A stretch of 40,878 nt of DNA from a virus, in the UHGV virus genome UHGV-0182401, one strand, 5' to 3'. A program made the position numbers and the translations under genes. The notes under the pieces are model-generated. The model was not told the origin of the DNA. It did no database searches and saw only the letters and a program-made list of their open reading frames with translations. Below are positions 3,163 to 40,878 of the stretch, in pieces; the first letter of the stretch is position 1, and the number at the start of each line of letters is the position of its first letter.

Positions 3163-3583
3163 AATTCGATCTCCGGCGCATCAGCAAAACGCTATTCACG
3201 CAGTACAGCAAATCCTTCCAGATCCAACCAAGCCAATCGTAGTGATCATTCAGGAGCGCAACCGTAGCTTAGACCAAAACAGGAAGCTATGGGCCTGCTT
3301 AGGTGACGTCTCTCGTCAGGTTGAATGGCATGGTCGCTGGCTGGATGCAGAAAGCTGGAAGTGTGTGTTTACCGCAGCATTAAAGCAGCAGGACGTTGTT
3401 CCTAACCTTGCCGGGAATGGCTTTGTGGTAATAGGCCAGTCAACCAGCAGGATGCGTGTAAGCGAATTTGCGGAGCTATTAGAGCTTATACAGGCATTCG
3501 GTACAGAGCGTGGCGTTAAGTGGTCAGACGAAGCGCGACTGGCTCTCGAATGGAAAGCGCGATGGGGAGACAGGGCGGCATGA
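3143..3583 (+). CDS. ninB: NinB recombination protein
   Basis: 146 aa, near-identical along its length to remembered lambda NinB ([27 protein letters not shown]...). Confidence 0.9.
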
Positions 3584-28581: not shown

Positions 28582-28934
28582 TGCGATACCGACGAGAAGA
28601 TGCTGACGGCGATTACACTTTCGGGCAAGGTGACGACACCTTCCTTATCGACAGTCCGGAATGTGTCGCCCAGGCCGTAAAAACCCGTTTCGAGCTCTGG
28701 CGCGGTCAGTGGTTTCTCGATCTGACGGAAGGCACGCCGTATGTTCAGTCAGTGCTTGGGAAACAGCGATCAGACGTCTACATCCTGGCTATACGCGAAC
28801 GCATACAGGACACGCCGGGCGTTCTGTCGATTCTTTCCTTCGATACCAATTATGACGGCACCAGCCGCCGCGTCACTTTCACTTCCTCCATTGACACAAT
28901 CTACGGCCAGACGACTGTAACAAGCGAGGCATAA
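28581..28934 (+). CDS. Baseplate protein (P2 gpW-like)
   Basis: 117 aa, position and size. Confidence 0.65.
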   Translation: MRYRREDADGDYTFGQGDDTFLIDSPECVAQAVKTRFELWRGQWFLDLTEGTPYVQSVLGKQRSDVYILAIRERIQDTPGVLSILSFDTNYDGTSRRVTFTSSIDTIYGQTTVTSEA

Positions 28935-33760: not shown

Positions 33761-34105
33761 TTAGTCCTTGCGTAGCTCGCTAATTCTTCTGTAAGTCTCT
33801 GGTGCTTTGTTTCCGTGTATCTTCATTTCAGACTTCAACAGAGCAACGAGGGAATCCCATTCGTTGAGGATGCCTTTGAATGCCGGAACGCGCTTTGCAA
33901 CCTTGTTGAATGAATCTCTGATTTCTGGAATCTGCTCAACAAGTGCAACGCATCGCCGAAAGTCTGCTGCGTCATGGGGAGCACCGAAGTAATGACCATA
34001 GATATTCTTTTTCAGTCCACATGCGATTGAGGCAAGAGTTGCGCTACTGATGCCAACATCGCCAGTCGATTGCCATTTCAAAACCTTCATAGCCAAATCT
34101 GACAT
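33761..34105 (-). CDS. Hypothetical protein (114 aa)
   Basis: Start placed at the internal ATG (MSDLAMK) because the track start codon lies inside a terminator hairpin; GGAGACAAG upstream. Confidence 0.5.
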   Translation of the reverse strand: MSDLAMKVLKWQSTGDVGISSATLASIACGLKKNIYGHYFGAPHDAADFRRCVALVEQIPEIRDSFNKVAKRVPAFKGILNEWDSLVALLKSEMKIHGNKAPETYRRISELRKD

Positions 34106-34116
34106 TTCTTGTCTCC

Positions 34117-34140
34117 AATAAAAAACCGCCATCAGGCGGC
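34117..34140 (-). terminator. Intrinsic terminator within the leftward early operon
   Basis: CCGCC-loop-GGCGG hairpin followed by TTTTTTATT on the minus strand, directly upstream of the next start codon. Confidence 0.5.
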
Positions 34141-34205
34141 TTGGTGTTCTTTCAGTTATTCAATTCGAATATTGGTTACATTGTTTTCATATATGAATAA
34201 ATAAA

Positions 34206-34385
34206 TTAGCTTTTTTCGTTGCCTTCGCTTTCTTTATTAATTTTAACAAACTCGTTTTTACCACGCTCTCCAAATGCGTCTTTAGAGTCGTTGTATCCGC
34301 AATCGCAGCACACATAATCTCCAGACCATCCACGCATTGTTTTTTCTTTTGCAATATTTCCAGAACCGCATTTTGGACAAGACAT
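34206..34385 (-). CDS. Small zinc-ribbon protein (59 aa)
   Basis: CPKCGSG...CCDCGYND, two CxxC pairs; GGAGG ribosome-binding site. Confidence 0.5.
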   Translation of the reverse strand: MSCPKCGSGNIAKEKTMRGWSGDYVCCDCGYNDSKDAFGERGKNEFVKINKESEGNEKS

Positions 34386-35951: not shown

Positions 35952-36242
35952 TCATGATTTACTCTCCACGAACTGGTCAACGGCCATGCTAAGTGACACA
36001 CCTAAAGTATCGATATGCTGCTGAATATCCTGTAGCGTCCGCGCTTGAGATAACAGAATTTCACGGTTGCATAACTCTTTAACCAGATGCTCAAACTTGC
36101 TGTAATAACCGATACGGCTTAGTGTTTCTTTCCCTGCATTCTCACCTTCTTTGATAATTCCTCTTTCGCTAAGAATCAGGTCGTGTTTGGTTCCGGTAAT
36201 AACGTATTTGCCGAGGTCGATGTTTAGCTTCATTGTTTTCAT
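35952..36242 (-). CDS. Hypothetical protein (97 aa)
   Basis: Start at ATG ([10 protein letters not shown]) after GAGGA; the track ORF extends upstream from a TTG into the preceding gene. Confidence 0.45.
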
Positions 36243-36252
36243 TGTTAATTCC

Positions 36253-36549
36253 TCAGTCATTACTGATAGCGCCATAGCGTGAGCGGTAATTACGCAGGCG
36301 CGGGTCGATATATTCAGGGAAGTGGGTATATGTGGCTTTGCGGAATGGTCGGATTGATGTCTGGTAAATTCGCTCTCGTTCTTCTTTCTCTGCAAGCCAT
36401 ATACAGTGGCGAAATTCCTTTTCTTCTTTCGTTTCCTGCGGTAGCGACATTATCCGGTCGTAGTTTTTCCTGAATTTATCCAGCACCTCCGATACGGAAT
36501 TGCCGGAACAGCGGCGCGCGTCGTCCGCACCATACAGAGGCGCTGGCAT
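36253..36549 (-). CDS. Hypothetical protein (98 aa)
   Basis: ORF with ATG start; first gene after ssb in the leftward operon. Confidence 0.45.
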   Translation of the reverse strand: MPAPLYGADDARRCSGNSVSEVLDKFRKNYDRIMSLPQETKEEKEFRHCIWLAEKEERERIYQTSIRPFRKATYTHFPEYIDPRLRNYRSRYGAISND

Positions 36550-36562
36550 GATTTTCTCCTGA

Positions 36563-37078
36563 TTAAATTGCGTGAATAGCGTGACGAGGGAAGGGGAGGG
36601 TTACTGGCGCAAAAGGTATATCGTCGTCAAACTCCATAGGTGGTTCGCTGTGATTTACCTGCTTCTGAGGCTGCTGTTTTTGTTGCTGACCGTTATTTCG
36701 CTGAGGTGAAGACTGTTCATTGCTTCCTTGCTTGCCACCAAGCATTTGCATGGTTCCACCAACGCCCACGATAACTTCGGTAGTGAACCGATCCTGTCCG
36801 CTTTGATCCTGCCATTTTCTTGTCCGCAATTTTCCTTCAAGATAAACCTCAGAGCCTTTTCGCAGATATTCGCTGGCAATTTCTGCCAGTTTCCCGCTCA
36901 TTACCACACGGTGCCACTCCGTCTGCTCCTTTTGCTCTCCAGTTTGCTTATCACGCCATTGTTCTGACGTAGCAACTATAAGGTTTGCAAATGCCGTTCC
37001 TGATGGTGAATATCTGATTTCTGGATCATGCCCAAGGCGACCAATAATGATCACCTTATTTACGCCTCTACTTCCCAT
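36563..37078 (-). CDS. ssb: Single-stranded DNA-binding protein, with a 15-aa extension beyond the canonical DDDIPF tail
   Basis: OB-fold N-terminus typical of SSB and acidic [11 protein letters not shown] near the C-terminus, followed in frame by [15 protein letters not shown] before the stop. Confidence 0.85.
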
Positions 37079-37786
37079 TTATGCCGCCTGTTTTAGTTCG
37101 TTAACTCTGATGTTCATTACCTGAACGCATTTAGCCTGCGCATCCTCATTGCCAGCCATTAATTGCCAGTCATGCTGATAACGTTCTATGAGTTTTTTCT
37201 TGTCAGTTTCTGTTGATGCATAATCGCTGAAGTCTTTCAGGATTTGTTCGCAGTCAACCGATGGAGATTTCTGGTTGGTATTTTCTGGTGATGGTTTGTT
37301 ATCTGATGCTGGGATTGCCCAGCCCGGCAGCGATGGAGGGAGCCAGTAAAATCCTGTTCCATCCTTCAGTTTTGCCCTGTGCCACCCCTGTTTTTTATCG
37401 GGAGATGTTTGTGCGAAACCTTCCTCAAGGTTATACAGATACCGACCGATTCCCCACTGAACGGCAGCGCGCTTCATTGCACCGGAACGACCACCTTTGA
37501 CGGCTTCTACCTGCGTGTTTTCAGCAGCATCCCATTTGGTTACCCATTCGGAATCAATCTTTATTGATATGCCGCATTCAACGCCGCCGTTGTTGGGAAT
37601 ATCGCGGTATTCATTGCGCCATCCTGCTTTGCCACAAACATCGTCAAGGCGTTTCATGATTGCCCGGTTCGTAACATAAGCCAGCACCATAGCCCACACC
37701 TTGCCATCGCGTGTTTTACCGCTTTGCTGTATTCGCCATTCGATATCTTCAGGGCAGAATGGCTCATCGAATTTGTTCAAATCCAT
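37079..37786 (-). CDS. Single-strand annealing recombinase (Rad52/Sak-like)
   Basis: GAMKRAAVQWGIGRYLY motif typical of Rad52-like annealing proteins; paired with ssb. Confidence 0.65.
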   Translation of the reverse strand: MDLNKFDEPFCPEDIEWRIQQSGKTRDGKVWAMVLAYVTNRAIMKRLDDVCGKAGWRNEYRDIPNNGGVECGISIKIDSEWVTKWDAAENTQVEAVKGGRSGAMKRAAVQWGIGRYLYNLEEGFAQTSPDKKQGWHRAKLKDGTGFYWLPPSLPGWAIPASDNKPSPENTNQKSPSVDCEQILKDFSDYASTETDKKKLIERYQHDWQLMAGNEDAQAKCVQVMNIRVNELKQAA

Positions 37787-37873
37787 AATTCACCTCAGAA
37801 TGGACATGGCCCAAGGAAATAACGCTGGTTTAATACTTCGACTCGGGACAAATTAAGGCATACCCGCATTCCT

Positions 37874-38044
37874 TCGCGGTCACCATTATGGCGATACCAG
37901 AGAGCTTTCTGCGTGTACATGCGTCTCTGTAACTTGCTCTCCTTCACTGTGGTTGCAAGTGACATGAATATCTCCTTCGTTACCGATTAATTCTTTCATC
38001 TGACGAATGAATTCTTCGTCTGACCAGTTATCTGTAAAACTCAT
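37874..38044 (-). CDS. Small hypothetical protein (56 aa), coupled to the kil-like gene
   Basis: ATGA overlap with the kil-like stop. An alternative 58-aa ORF in another frame with an AAGGAG site overlaps it, so the frame choice is uncertain. Confidence 0.3.
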
Positions 38045-38193
38045 TTCCTGCGATACCACGGAATGTTGATCGCTGATTTCATCGCTTTATTTGCTTCAAG
38101 CCACATTTTGGAATCACCAATAAATCTGGCTATTACTGCTTTGTTCTGTGCAGCACGAAGCATCTGGTGATTGATGGCTATTTCATTGCGCAT
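38041..38193 (-). CDS. kil: Kil-like small protein (50 aa)
   Basis: GGAGG ribosome-binding site; FIGDSKMW resembles my (uncertain) recollection of lambda Kil; position between cIII-like gene and the recombination genes matches lambda order. Confidence 0.45.
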   Translation of the reverse strand: MRNEIAINHQMLRAAQNKAVIARFIGDSKMWLEANKAMKSAINIPWYRRK

Positions 38194-38312
38194 AACGCCT
38201 CCAGTTGTTTCTTTGCTGCTCTGATTAATTGTTTAACTCGGCGTGATAATTCAGATTCGTGCGGGTAGAAAGCGGACATGACGCCGCTACCCGCGAGCTG
38301 AAAGTGCATCAT
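38178..38312 (-). CDS. cIII: CIII-like small protein (44 aa)
   Basis: AAGGAG site; ESELSRRVKQLIRAAKKQL resembles the lambda CIII central helix. Below the ORF-track cutoff. Confidence 0.5.
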   Translation of the reverse strand: MMHFQLAGSGVMSAFYPHESELSRRVKQLIRAAKKQLEALCAMK

Positions 38313-38395
38313 GGGTAACTCCTTATATTTGATTGCATAACGAAAACGCCTCGAGTGAAGCGTTATTGGTATGCGGTAAAGCCGCGCTCAGGCGG

Positions 38396-38644
38396 CTACT
38401 CTATTTCTTCTTCGAATGATTTTATTAGTCGGTCAATAACATCATCCGTTTCAATATCATTTCCGTCTGATTGCTTTAATACATCTATTGATTCTGCAGC
38501 GGTAAATTCCATCGCTGTGAGAAACTCGACAATTGCACACTCAACGACATATCGTTCTTCATCTGTACGACATGAGATAAAAGAGCATTTAATTGCTGTT
38601 ATTACTTTTTGTTTAAGCTCTGCAGGGTAATCAGTTTTTATCAT
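38396..38644 (-). CDS. Small acidic hypothetical protein (82 aa)
   Basis: ORF with GGAG site, preceded by a terminator hairpin. Confidence 0.45.
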   Translation of the reverse strand: MIKTDYPAELKQKVITAIKCSFISCRTDEERYVVECAIVEFLTAMEFTAAESIDVLKQSDGNDIETDDVIDRLIKSFEEEIE

Positions 38645-38657
38645 CGTTTACTCCGTC

Positions 38658-38686
38658 AAAAAAATTGCCCTCACATTAGAGGGCAA
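38658..38686 (-). terminator. Intrinsic terminator within the leftward early operon
   Basis: TTGCCCTC-ACATTA-GAGGGCAA hairpin followed by TTTTTTT on the minus strand, directly upstream of a gene start. Confidence 0.5.
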
Positions 38687-39050
38687 AGAAGATTTCCAAT
38701 AATCAGAACAAGTCGGCTCCTGTTTAGTTACGAGCGACATTGCTCCGTGTATTCACTCGTTGGAATGAATACACAGTGCTGTGTTTATTCTGTTATTTAT
38801 GCCAAAAATAAAGGCCACTATCAGGCAGCTTTGTTGTTCTATTAACCAAGTTCTCTGGCAATCATTGCCGTCGTTCGTATTGCCCACACCATTGATTCTT
38901 ATCAATAGTCGTAGTCATACGGATAGTCCTGGTATTGTTCCATCACATCCTGCGGATGCTCTTCGAACTCTTCAAATTCTTCTTCCATATCTCACCTCAA
39001 ATAAGTGGTTTGCTGCCAAAACAATGAACCATCCGGAAATTCCAGATAGT

Positions 39051-39278
39051 TCATAATTCACTCTTCAATACTTCCAACTTACTAATCGCCGATAGATATC
39101 CGCGCTGATAGGGCATCATCATTCCTTCGAGCTTGCCACTTCTTAACTCCTCCCTGAGCAATTGTATTGCTTGATCAATAACCTCTGCCTTAGCGTCCTT
39201 TATGGCTTGCTTGCGGGGCTTTGCTTTCTGCTTTGGCAGATTTCTCAAGCATGATGGAATGTATGTCTGATTCATCAC
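39051..39278 (-). CDS. Hypothetical early protein (75 aa)
   Basis: Immediately downstream of the N-like gene. Confidence 0.45.
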   Translation of the reverse strand: MMNQTYIPSCLRNLPKQKAKPRKQAIKDAKAEVIDQAIQLLREELRSGKLEGMMMPYQRGYLSAISKLEVLKSEL

Positions 39279-39551
39279 TTACCTGGCTGTCAGTTGTTTT
39301 GATTTCCGGTAGCCTGCCGAGTAAATGGCTACGTTTGGCAGGCAAATACTTCCACTGCATTCTTCTGCCTTCTTGCAGCGAAGGCTTCCTAGTGATGCTG
39401 CTTTATCTGCTCTGACGCAACCAGAGAGCTTTAGCGCAATTTTTCGTGACAATCGCTGTTCTTGCATTGCCTGTTCACGTTGAGCCTGTCTGCGTGCTCT
39501 GCGGCGATTTCTGGCGTTATCGTCAGCCAGATATGTAATGACTACTGTCAT
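39279..39551 (-). CDS. N: N-like transcription antiterminator (P22 gp24-like)
   Basis: Arginine-rich motif NARNRRRARRQAQREQ; C-terminus YSAGYRKSKQLTAR resembles remembered P22 gp24; first gene after pL and nutL. Confidence 0.75.
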   Translation of the reverse strand: MTVVITYLADDNARNRRRARRQAQREQAMQEQRLSRKIALKLSGCVRADKAASLGSLRCKKAEECSGSICLPNVAIYSAGYRKSKQLTAR

Positions 39552-39657
39552 GTTGACCTCCGATGATTGACTTTGGCGGTGACGCGCCGGGTGCTTATCT
39601 TCCGGTTGCCGTCGTGCAGCTGCACTTCACGTCACCCCAAAGCCAACTACTCTTTGG

Positions 39658-39700
39658 TTCCCGCATTTCGGCGGGACAATCCCATCAATGTTAAAGAGCC
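39658..39700 (-). promoter_or_regulatory. nutL: boxA (GCTCTTTAACA) plus boxB hairpin
   Basis: On the minus strand, boxA at 39689-39699 followed 11 nt later by the same TCCCGCCGAAATGCGGGA hairpin seen in nutR. Confidence 0.6.
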
Positions 39701-39745
39701 TGCCAATCTGTTCCGTTTGGCTACCAGCTTCCTGCTGATGGCTAG

Positions 39746-39774
39746 ATAATCACAAATTGTGGTCGTACTGTCAA
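39746..39774 (-). promoter_or_regulatory. Candidate pL promoter (TTGACA-N17-GATTAT) with overlapping operator-like palindrome
   Basis: Consensus -35 and reasonable -10 on the minus strand; palindrome CACAAATTGTG at 39751-39761 in the spacer. Confidence 0.45.
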
Positions 39775-39846
39775 CACGAAATGTGATTGTTTTTATCACA
39801 ACCCGTGTTTACATTGATTTTAAAGGTAATTTAATTTTCTTTGGGC

Positions 39847-39871
39847 AACAAAAAACCCGCCGAAGCGGGTT
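39847..39871 (-). terminator. Intrinsic terminator downstream of cI
   Basis: AACCCGC-CGAA-GCGGGTT hairpin followed by a T-run on the minus strand, about 25 nt after the cI stop. Confidence 0.55.
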
Positions 39872-39895
39872 TGATGTTTTTAAGTGGCGGGTATA

Positions 39896-40537
39896 TCAGG
39901 AGAATTTCATCATCATCTGCACTGCTACGCCGATTATCTTGCAGTTGCCGTCGATTGGGATCAACGGATAGGCAGGGTTAAGCCCTTTCAGGTATTTGTT
40001 ACCGCCATCAATGATTAGCTTCTTGAACGTGGCTTCATTAGCATCTGTCAGCTTCGCAACTACCAGGCTTCCATTAACGGCTTCCTTTCCAGTGTCGAAC
40101 AGAACCAGCATACCCTCAGGAACGCTAAGGCCGGTAGGAGCTGTCATTGAGTCGCCCTGAACCCTGAGCCAGAAGGCGTCACCGACAACGTGACAATCTG
40201 ATTCATACCACTCATCCACTGCCTGAGGGTTGTACGGCTCTACGGCCTCACTCCATGCACCTGCGCTAACCCAGCTAATCAACGGAAACTTTTCCCCTGG
40301 CTTGTATTGTCCCTGATAGTTGTCGCCAAAAAGCAGTTCTGCCGGAGCGACACCCAAAGCTTTAGCTATTACCTCTGCGTCATCAACACTAACGCTTCTG
40401 GTTCCTGATTCATAGTTGCCGATCCGAGATTGTGAAGCCCAGCCGCAAAGCTCCGCAAGAGCCTTCTGTGTAAGCCCTTTATCTTCCCGTAATCGCTTGA
40501 TACGCGCGGCGATAGTTTCTGTTCTGTTCATGCGCAT
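39896..40537 (-). CDS. cI: CI-type repressor (helix-turn-helix plus LexA-like S24 autocleavage domain)
   Basis: 213 aa; C-terminal domain PLISWVSAG...VQGDSMTAP...CKIIGV closely resembles remembered P22 C2; divergent from cro. Confidence 0.9.
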   Translation of the reverse strand: MRMNRTETIAARIKRLREDKGLTQKALAELCGWASQSRIGNYESGTRSVSVDDAEVIAKALGVAPAELLFGDNYQGQYKPGEKFPLISWVSAGAWSEAVEPYNPQAVDEWYESDCHVVGDAFWLRVQGDSMTAPTGLSVPEGMLVLFDTGKEAVNGSLVVAKLTDANEATFKKLIIDGGNKYLKGLNPAYPLIPIDGNCKIIGVAVQMMMKFS

Positions 40538-40579
40538 TTTATATCACATTCCGTGGTTTAAGGCTTTACACGATTTGTG

Positions 40580-40608
40580 TTGACTATCAATCACAATGTG
40601 TGTTTAAT
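40580..40608 (+). promoter_or_regulatory. Candidate pR promoter (TTGACT-N17-TTTAAT) with operator-like palindromes
   Basis: In the cI-cro intergenic region; ACACGATTTGTGT and TCACAATGTGTG nearby. Confidence 0.45.
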
Positions 40609-40641
40609 AAAGACTGAGTGAACTAGCTCTTAAGGAAACCT

Positions 40642-40857
40642 ATGAACAACATTGCCAACGAACGGAAAAAGCTTGGCATCACTCAATCTGCGTTAGCAGG
40701 CGCGTGTGGCTGGAACCAGTCCCGCTTAGCTAACTACGAGTCAGGTATCCGGACTCCAGATTTAGAGTCGTGCCGTAGCCTGGTAAAGGCGCTGAATAAA
40801 TTGGGGAGCAAGACAACGCTAGATGGCTTGTTCCCGCCGCGTAAGAACGCCGCATAA
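40642..40857 (+). CDS. cro: Cro-like helix-turn-helix regulator
   Basis: 71 aa XRE-type helix-turn-helix (LGITQSALAGACGWNQSRLANYESG), divergent from cI. Confidence 0.7.
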   Translation: MNNIANERKKLGITQSALAGACGWNQSRLANYESGIRTPDLESCRSLVKALNKLGSKTTLDGLFPPRKNAA

Positions 40858-40863
40858 GCAAAT

Positions 40864-40875
40864 TGCTCTTTAACA
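40864..40875 (+). promoter_or_regulatory. nutR boxA (TGCTCTTTAACA)
   Basis: Matches the rrn-type boxA consensus as remembered; its boxB partner is at positions 11-30. Confidence 0.55.
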
Positions 40876-40878
40876 GTC

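Follow-up and report, generated by a model that had tools for sequence, protein, structure and literature searches.

A sequence-variable, structure-conserved stem-loop of the leftward PL transcript at the 5' edge of the PreS small RNA gene

Phage lambda encodes an Hfq-dependent small RNA (sRNA) between ea10 and ral that was described as LPR1 and then renamed PreS (bioRxiv 10.1101/2024.10.31.621285). The 3' end of PreS has been equated with the terminator tL2a, and the RNA occurs as species of ~88 nt and ~68 nt that are made only in the lytic cycle and are absent in lysogens; in lambda, it activates dnaN and represses alaS (bioRxiv 10.1101/2024.10.31.621285). Homologues have been reported only at 92% identity or above (bioRxiv 10.1101/2024.10.31.621285). 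The locus is not new in itself, having been described as an sRNA gene (PreS), as a terminator (tL2a) and as a boundary sequence (bsq4), and it is an established concept that short conserved boundary sequences mediate mosaic joints (PMC3029335). The text of the PreS paper is silent on any hairpin or stem-loop, and on the promoter, transcription start and biogenesis of LPR1, and the hairpin that we describe here, which directly precedes PreS, is itself not described in the literature searched. AgvB/AsxR and PasA-D of pathogenic E. coli are likewise Hfq-associated sRNAs of lambdoid prophages, but they belong to different loci; we rejected them as identities for the present element because they occupy other prophage positions (the PR' moron site and the late region) and because no Rfam match to their families was obtained. 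The most fitting class for the hairpin is that of intercistronic processing or stabiliser stem-loops, of which it would be a new example, joined to an sRNA already known. It resembles intercistronic hairpins such as T7 R1.1-type RNase III sites and 3' protective stem-loops in being a stem-loop of a polycistronic early phage transcript, with a mismatch-containing base and the 5' end of a downstream RNA at its 3' foot. It differs from the R1.1 type in that its helix is shorter than canonical RNase III substrates, its upper stem is hypervariable and cleavage is here only proposed.

The stretch of DNA analysed, which we call the window, is the 40,878-nt virus genome UHGV-0182401. Its positions 36500-40878 are ~99.7% identical to Escherichia phage ECP1, and positions 38659-38886 match lambda 33925-34152 at 97.4% identity in a single piece, so that a window coordinate here equals the lambda coordinate plus 4734. 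In the lambda annotation, the counterpart of the interval lies between ral (34087-34287) and ea10. The Sf6 record (AF547987) annotates the homologous left-end stem-loop as the terminator 'tL2A' and the adjoining 113 nt as 'bsq4; boundary sequence', and the lambda and Sf6 annotations together put the stretch between ral and tL2a.

On the minus strand, the locus begins with a ral pseudogene remnant (38821..38918, by alignment with lambda ral) that has lost 103 nt internally between short TGG repeats and reads TAATAG for AAACAG near its 3' end; its frame stops after 18 codons, and its neighbour orf28 (38902-38988) is intact. A GAAUAA motif (38785..38790, minus strand) lies just 5' of the hairpin, with the 5-nt ACACA between them. 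Beyond the hairpin lies an 88-nt homologue of PreS (38658..38745, minus strand), located by the published primers and by alignment with lambda, whose body matches lambda lpr1 at every position between the 5' end and the terminator stem. Its seed, UGUUCUGAUUAUUGGAA, occupies 38710->38694, and its fold has a z of -4.9. The PreS 3' end is the intrinsic terminator tL2a (38658..38686, minus strand; terminator scan, Sf6 annotation and PreS paper), here a stem TTGCCCTC-6-GAGGGCAA (38686-38665) followed by U7 (38664-38658). The interval 38658-38745 thus has what identifies a PreS locus: lambda lpr1 identity, a position on the PL strand downstream of the ral remnant and a U-tailed terminator. Compared with PreS in lambda, the locus is the same, and so are the sRNA body, the seed and the tL2a-type terminator that directly follow the hairpin; the downstream gene differs, being an 82-aa ORF and not ea10. 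Compared with the lambda tL2 cluster, this is the same intergenic region downstream of ral in the PL operon, with tL2a 59 nt downstream of the 3' foot of the hairpin; the hairpin is without a U-tract and is not a terminator. An earlier note, made from the letters of the sequence, had called the stretch gene-free. It holds the PreS/LPR1 sRNA, the tL2a terminator and the ral pseudogene remnant, and with the hairpin among them the 'gene-free' stretch is really a small-RNA cassette.

Several neighbouring features deserve mention in their own right. The 82-aa ORF is acidic, runs from 38396 to 38644 on the minus strand directly downstream of tL2a, and replaces lambda ea10. RefSeq names it 'anti-restriction protein' in phage ECP1, and GenBank lists 'antirestriction protein ral' under the stretch; no Pfam family matches it, it exceeds lambda Ral in length (82 vs 66 residues), and it lies downstream of the ral-homologous DNA, not inside it. 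A weak terminator-like site at 38814-38829 (minus strand; a GCTGC/GTGGC stem, then CTTTATTTTT) overlaps the old ral stop codon and is kept in lambda-type contexts only. Further upstream, a terminator-like 14-bp hairpin at 39024-39054 (minus strand; ATGAACTATCTGGAATTTCCGGATGGTTCAT, then TGTTTTGG) starts at the last three codons (Ser-Glu-Leu) and stop of a 75-aa ORF, ends ~35 nt upstream of orf28 and has no counterpart in lambda. A symmetric stem-loop at 39853-39872 (AAACCCGC-TTCG-GCGGGTTT, read on both strands, with T-runs on either side) sits just beyond the 3' end of a 213-aa repressor-like gene and looks like a bidirectional terminator.

The earlier note had drawn attention to nested inverted repeats at 38747-38790. 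Both 8-mers are present, as GTGTATTC (38747-38754) and, after a 12-nt spacer, GAATACAC (38767-38774) in the plus-strand view, and so is the small palindrome ACACAG-TG-CTGTGT (38771-38784). The palindrome was said to follow the repeat; instead it shares 4 nt (ACAC) with the right arm, and therefore with the 5' arm of the main hairpin, so that the two hairpins are mutually exclusive. It is perfect only in a T->A minority variant, the one in this window; lambda (primer P969) and most copies read ACACTGCACTGTGT at this place, and as RNA the palindrome would need a 2-nt loop, which is impossible. It is a by-product of the T->A variant and no unit of its own, and the idea of a nested unit falls away, since the palindrome is not conserved and competes with the main stem.

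The main hairpin (38745..38776, minus strand), defined by the fold, the repeat listing and covariation over alleles, is larger than the plus-strand view suggests, because G.U pairs on the minus-strand RNA lengthen the stem to 14 bp. It reads CUGUGUAUUCAUUC (38776->38763), a CAAC loop (38762->38759) and GAGUGAAUACACGG (38758->38745), two of the 14 pairs being G.U. The pairs G38779-C38742 and C38778-G38743 add a lower stem and give an extended hairpin (38742..38779, minus strand) in which an A38777 x A38744 mismatch sits between the lower GC/GC stem and the 14-bp upper stem; in the present context, ACA/UGU pairing carries the structure further, to 38737-38784. Structure prediction on the minus strand, one of the checks that the earlier note had proposed, gave a strong result: the 66-nt fold has a free energy of -23.0 kcal/mol (z = -6.77), and none of 200 dinucleotide shuffles was as good. 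The plus-strand version is weaker (-20.6 kcal/mol, z -4.1). Despite a G+C content of about 34%, the hairpin ranks ~15th of 40,836 44-nt segments taken from both strands over the whole window.

We then placed the hairpin relative to PreS by means of the published primers. Primers P810, P1103 and P1107 put the start of lpr1 at GAGCAATGTCG / GAGCAATGTCGCTCGTAACT, the cloning, T7 and deletion primers begin PreS at the stem-closing G, and the full-deletion arm (P969) ends ...GAGTGAATACACG / ...CACTGTGTATTCATTCCAACGAGTGAATACACG immediately before lpr1 (bioRxiv 10.1101/2024.10.31.621285). The 53-nt junction string built from these primers has one occurrence in the window, at 38726-38778 on the minus strand, and G38745, which closes the 14-bp stem, is PreS nucleotide 1 as cloned, 'nucleotide 1' being the authors' cloning boundary and perhaps approximate. 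None of the 44 nt of the reported interval 38747-38790 is inside PreS as cloned, the interval starting 2 nt upstream of 38745; PreS shares G38745 with the larger stem and nothing with the repeat originally noted. The hairpin is therefore outside the mature sRNA as its authors define it, and their lpr1 deletion design leaves it intact. Judged by the fold, the start of the ~68-nt form would fall within an A/U-rich loop, the one in the 5' domain of PreS.

In an alignment of eight phages (the window, lambda, Sf6, HK97, HK022, HK75, an Stx phage and a Salmonella phage), no position varies from the hairpin loop through the terminator stem; in HK97 and the Stx phage the homology sets in exactly at GCACTGTG, where the extended hairpin has its 5' base. 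HK022 has the end of an IS903 inserted in the 5' arm, which leaves a 6-bp remnant stem before PreS, and is in effect a natural hairpin-disruption mutant. Scanning IMG/VR with a PreS-seed anchor yielded 124 usable 230-nt contexts (the eight phage-record loci included), 106 of them distinct. Across these, column identity to the window rises from 0.36-0.7 to at least 0.92 at the lower-stem G and is ~1.0 from there up to the terminator; at least nine unrelated upstream flanks are joined at this G. Sf6 bsq4 extends exactly from the lower-stem G to the last terminator-stem base, that is, over hairpin, PreS and terminator stem, and the block in the window is the same sequence. It is short, non-coding, conserved and located at a mosaic junction, as a lambdoid 'boundary sequence' should be; bsq4 was annotated only as a mosaic boundary, whereas here it resolves into a covarying hairpin and an sRNA gene.

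The 131-nt block of hairpin and PreS occurs at 3,193 places in E. coli; of 5,426 complete genomes, 2,234 (~41%) carry it. Among 12 sampled matches, 11 have no annotated feature and one lies under a 'hypothetical protein'. In most contexts (C)GAATAA stands before the hairpin, and in many CGAATAA directly abuts its base. GAATAA supplies the stop codon of the upstream ORF in P22 orf87, epsilon34 gp40, SI5 and SE16, so the cassette may carry its own stop codon; in E. coli prophage contigs with allele B (below), the upstream ORF likewise stays open as far as this TAA. The exact PreS seed string was also found in assemblies of Shewanella, Pseudomonas, Bacillaceae, Bradyrhizobium and others, often on contigs of ~48.4-48.5 kb or of low coverage, and these non-enteric matches are almost certainly lambda DNA contamination.

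Such a distribution could be taken to mean that the element acts at the level of DNA, as a boundary sequence or palindrome that serves as a recombination linker or cruciform hotspot for the exchange of lambdoid modules and has no RNA function of its own. The 5' base of the hairpin is precisely where the mosaic junctions fall, the block bears the label of a boundary sequence in the Sf6 record, in line with an established concept (PMC3029335), and hairpin alleles and sRNA bodies reassort, as set out below. A linker needs sequence identity, however, and the upper stem is the sole part of the block that lacks sequence conservation, while the rest of the block is a functional sRNA.

Six IMG/VR contigs carry at the same place a hairpin, allele B, with the sequence GC-G/A-C-C-UAUAGCAGAUU-UACG-AGUCUGCUAUG-U-G-A-GC; its flanks are those of allele A, its upper stem is unrelated and its hairpin is equally good. 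Allele B also turns up in 92 E. coli genomes and in two phages, mEp043 and mEp213; in P22 it stands directly after the TAA of orf87. A distant search seeded with P22, in which 12 loci of P22-like Salmonella phages were fetched and aligned, produced a graded series, and a second IMG/VR scan anchored on the 5' end of the P22-type sRNA gave further copies. The pooled set, drawn from lambda-like and P22-like phages, comprises 267 copies of the cassette, among which 52 hairpin regions are distinct. A stem-loop stands at this position in 265 of the 267, the exceptions being HK022 (IS903) and one odd contig. The copies include at least five upper-stem alleles unrelated in sequence (A, B, C, D and F), together with B2, which differs from B by a compensated A->U/U->A change, and E, which is B with a variant loop. 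Stems in the other alleles are 11-13 bp long, and loops vary freely; allele A alone has CAAC, CAGU, CAAU, CGGU, CGUU, CGAU and UUCU among its loops.

When the alleles were aligned by MAFFT without adjustment, their arms were out of register and RNAalifold missed the hairpin; the alignment was therefore re-registered from the conserved flanks (GCx ... AGC). This gave 13 ungapped arm positions per side and 23 distinct rows, with the loop swapped for a constant linker and the loop length of each row chosen to maximise pairing. Paired cells amount to 92.8%, against 67.3 +/- 1.7% in shuffled alignments (0/500 as high); sliding the register lowers the figure to 54.8% or less. For covariation the score is 0.617, compared with 0.156 +/- 0.021 in shuffles (0/500) and at most 0.131 when the register is slid. 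Cells changed on both sides number 86, compared with 29.8 in shuffles (0/500), a count that over-counts events since the copies are related. Counted by position, double-changed pairs are 9 of 15, close to the 8.0 of shuffled alignments (124 of 500 had as many), with at most 5 in slid registers. Some of the apparent compensation may be mutational and not selective, since template switching at a quasi-palindrome can restore complementarity. The conservation analysis that the earlier note had called for is thus answered by the near-universal presence of the hairpin and by its covariation.

The base of the stem behaves differently from the arms. GCAC...G(Y)GAGC is kept in nearly all alleles (columns 1-4 and 33-36 are identical in 21-22 of 23 rows); the GC/GC lower stem and the first pair, C-G, scarcely vary, and the position between them is almost always unpaired, mostly A x A. 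The second pair is mismatched in 15 of the 23 rows, and U.G wobbles occur at two stem positions in 12 and 20 of the 23. In allele B, as in allele A, the sense strand folds better (-26.2 kcal/mol vs -21.5 kcal/mol antisense). The conserved wobbles and mismatches and the greater stability of the sense strand argue for an RNA on the PL-sense strand, as opposed to a DNA palindrome or an antisense RNA. For a DNA element, the wobbles are awkward, as they would turn into A-C mismatches in DNA or on the opposite strand, and so is the preference for the sense strand in both alleles tested; we consider a purely DNA-level linker quite unlikely. We conclude that the inverted repeat is a selected, evolutionarily maintained stem-loop of the leftward PL (minus-strand) transcript.

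The same patterns bear on the idea that the hairpin is a neutral quasi-palindrome, in which template-switch repair keeps the arms complementary while the sequence hitch-hikes, without function, beside a strongly selected sRNA. Palindrome 'correction' predicts upper stems that are highly variable and nearly perfect, as these are, and single-copy variants with broken pairs do exist. Template switching would, however, erase the A x A mismatch, the mismatched second pair and the two G.U wobbles, all of which are kept, and the hairpin has outlasted changes of allele (at least five), of sRNA body (at least three types) and of upstream gene (many), in 265 of 267 copies. Neutral upkeep thus strikes us as improbable, and we retain the reading of a selected RNA stem-loop.

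We also compared the element with other kinds of feature. Rfam 15 returned only chance matches over it (E<=10 for 36000-40878; E<=1 for the P22, BTP1 and epsilon34 loci). An intrinsic terminator was rejected: the stem has about 34% G+C and is followed by AGCAAUGUCG with no U-tract, and the terminator scan did not report it. A nut/boxB element has a 5-bp stem and a conserved purine-rich pentaloop and is preceded by boxA; compared by inspection, the hairpin has an 11-14-bp stem and free loops of 4-5 nt (6 without the innermost pair), and we set this identity aside as well. Two small ORFs were dismissed for want of support, a 30-aa ATG ORF (38740-38648) that lies inside PreS and has its GGAG 3 nt from the ATG and sequestered in the stem, and a 50-aa TTG ORF (38905-38753) that ends inside the hairpin. 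In the minimum free energy fold of a 181-nt precursor, the upstream flank AAUAACAGAAUAA pairs with the PreS seed, which raised the idea of an anti-seed; this too was rejected, the duplex energy being unexceptional (z = -1.4, 21 of 300 shuffles as good) and the pairing absent in other upstream contexts.

Of the two natures that the earlier note had offered for the repeat, the regulatory RNA structure gains from the strong sense-strand fold, from compensatory changes over at least five alleles and from its position against a known sRNA. The other, a protein-binding DNA site, is unlikely, because arm sequence is freely replaced while pairing and G.U wobbles are kept. A palindromic DNA operator was rejected on similar grounds: half-sites are not conserved, and alleles B, C, D and F have entirely different upper-stem sequences that still pair. 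More broadly, one could imagine a promoter or operator here, with the repeat binding a protein or holding -10/-35 elements that drive PreS independently. The repeat is immediately upstream of the sRNA 5' end, and palindromes are commonly bound by dimeric regulators. But a scan found no sigma-70-like site at the hairpin, the would-be -10/-35 elements would fall in the hypervariable arms, where no hexamer is common to the alleles by inspection, and PreS is absent in lysogens and appears only on PL derepression. A promoter or operator here is very unlikely.

PreS is seen only while PL is active and has no conserved promoter in front of it, from which we infer that it is cut out of the PL transcript. 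The hairpin is most likely a processing and insulating element in a cassette with the order (stop codon), hairpin, PreS/LPR1 sRNA and tL2a terminator. An endonucleolytic cut at the loosely paired base, positioned or limited by the hairpin, would set the 5' end of PreS. The hairpin would then stay behind as a 3'-terminal stem-loop and could shield the upstream mRNA (ral, orf28 and the N side) from 3' exonucleases; it would also keep variable upstream sequence from pairing with the sRNA body. Such insulation could be useful to a cassette that recombines behind many different genes. Translation termination at the abutting stop codon may, more speculatively, open the stem transiently. Taken as a whole, the reading of the element as a PL-transcript stem-loop that forms the conserved 5' boundary of a mobile cassette and serves in PreS processing and insulation is, in our judgement, probably right.

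RNase E and RNase III are candidate nucleases for PreS excision. RNase E reportedly prefers U at +2, a preference associated with Chao et al. in 2017, and the hairpin-PreS junction, CACG followed by GAGC, does not fit it. Transcripts from lambda PL are known RNase III substrates at other places, and this raises an alternative in which the hairpin is an RNase III site of the T7 R1.1 or lambda N-leader/sib type that uncouples N-ral from cIII, kil and the recombination genes, PreS being incidental. The architecture would suit this, since a conserved internal mismatch separates the upper stem from a short lower one and the downstream 5' end lies 3' of that mismatch. Four complete E. coli genomes (including VL40) point the same way; in these the hairpin and GAGCAAT are joined directly to the cIII ribosome-binding site, and PreS, tL2a and ea10 are deleted. 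Since the hairpin persists there without PreS, it may have a PreS-independent role, for example in stabilising or uncoupling mRNA segments. RNase III, however, accommodates ~22 bp of double-stranded RNA in its substrate valley (PMC6212723), and the helix falls below this: here it has 14 bp, the A x A mismatch and 2 bp (plus 3 bp), and the stems of other alleles measure 11-13 bp. Beneath the putative cut there are only 3-6 positions, loosely paired. We regard a dedicated RNase III site with PreS as a bystander as unlikely, and continue to favour a hairpin that serves PreS processing and insulation.

Hairpin alleles reassort with sRNA body types. Allele A occurs with lambda-type and P22-type bodies, allele B with both, and allele F with a third seed type, and a hairpin is always present whatever the type of sRNA body. 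A bolder version of the argument would make the cassette a self-contained mobile sRNA gene with its own maturation signal, in which the base is the processing recognition site and the upper stem is under diversifying pressure. Diversification of the upper stem might avoid cross-pairing or targeting between co-resident prophages, or might give a phage factor an allele-specific handle. We hold this extension to be rather unlikely; if true, it would represent a new type of portable sRNA-biogenesis element, found in lambda-like and P22-like phages with at least three seed types.

The hairpin also precedes PreS-like RNAs beyond lambda-like phages. In P22 (BK000583, ~28735-28880), a diverged PreS-like RNA with its own terminator follows the allele B hairpin, upstream of gene 17, and P22, ST104, epsilon34, BTP1, ES18 and others have diverged, longer PreS-like RNAs behind the same hairpin. 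The seed is altered in the P22-like phages (CGUUCUGGUUAAUCGAAAAAUC vs UGUUCUGAUUAUUGGAAAUC), and the third seed type reads CCUGUUCUGGUUAGAUUGAGAAAUC; the core common to the seed types is GUUCUGRUU. These RNAs of P22-like Salmonella phages widen the PreS family beyond the homologues of at least 92% identity.

The finding is explained largely by known biology. PreS is among the first phage sRNAs shown to reprogramme host replication, and its excision from the N-antiterminated PL transcript is not addressed in the paper that described it (bioRxiv 10.1101/2024.10.31.621285). A hairpin conserved in structure and free in sequence at the 5' edge of PreS offers a mutable handle on the biogenesis of this RNA, and it also gives a functional explanation for one long-noted lambdoid 'boundary sequence'.
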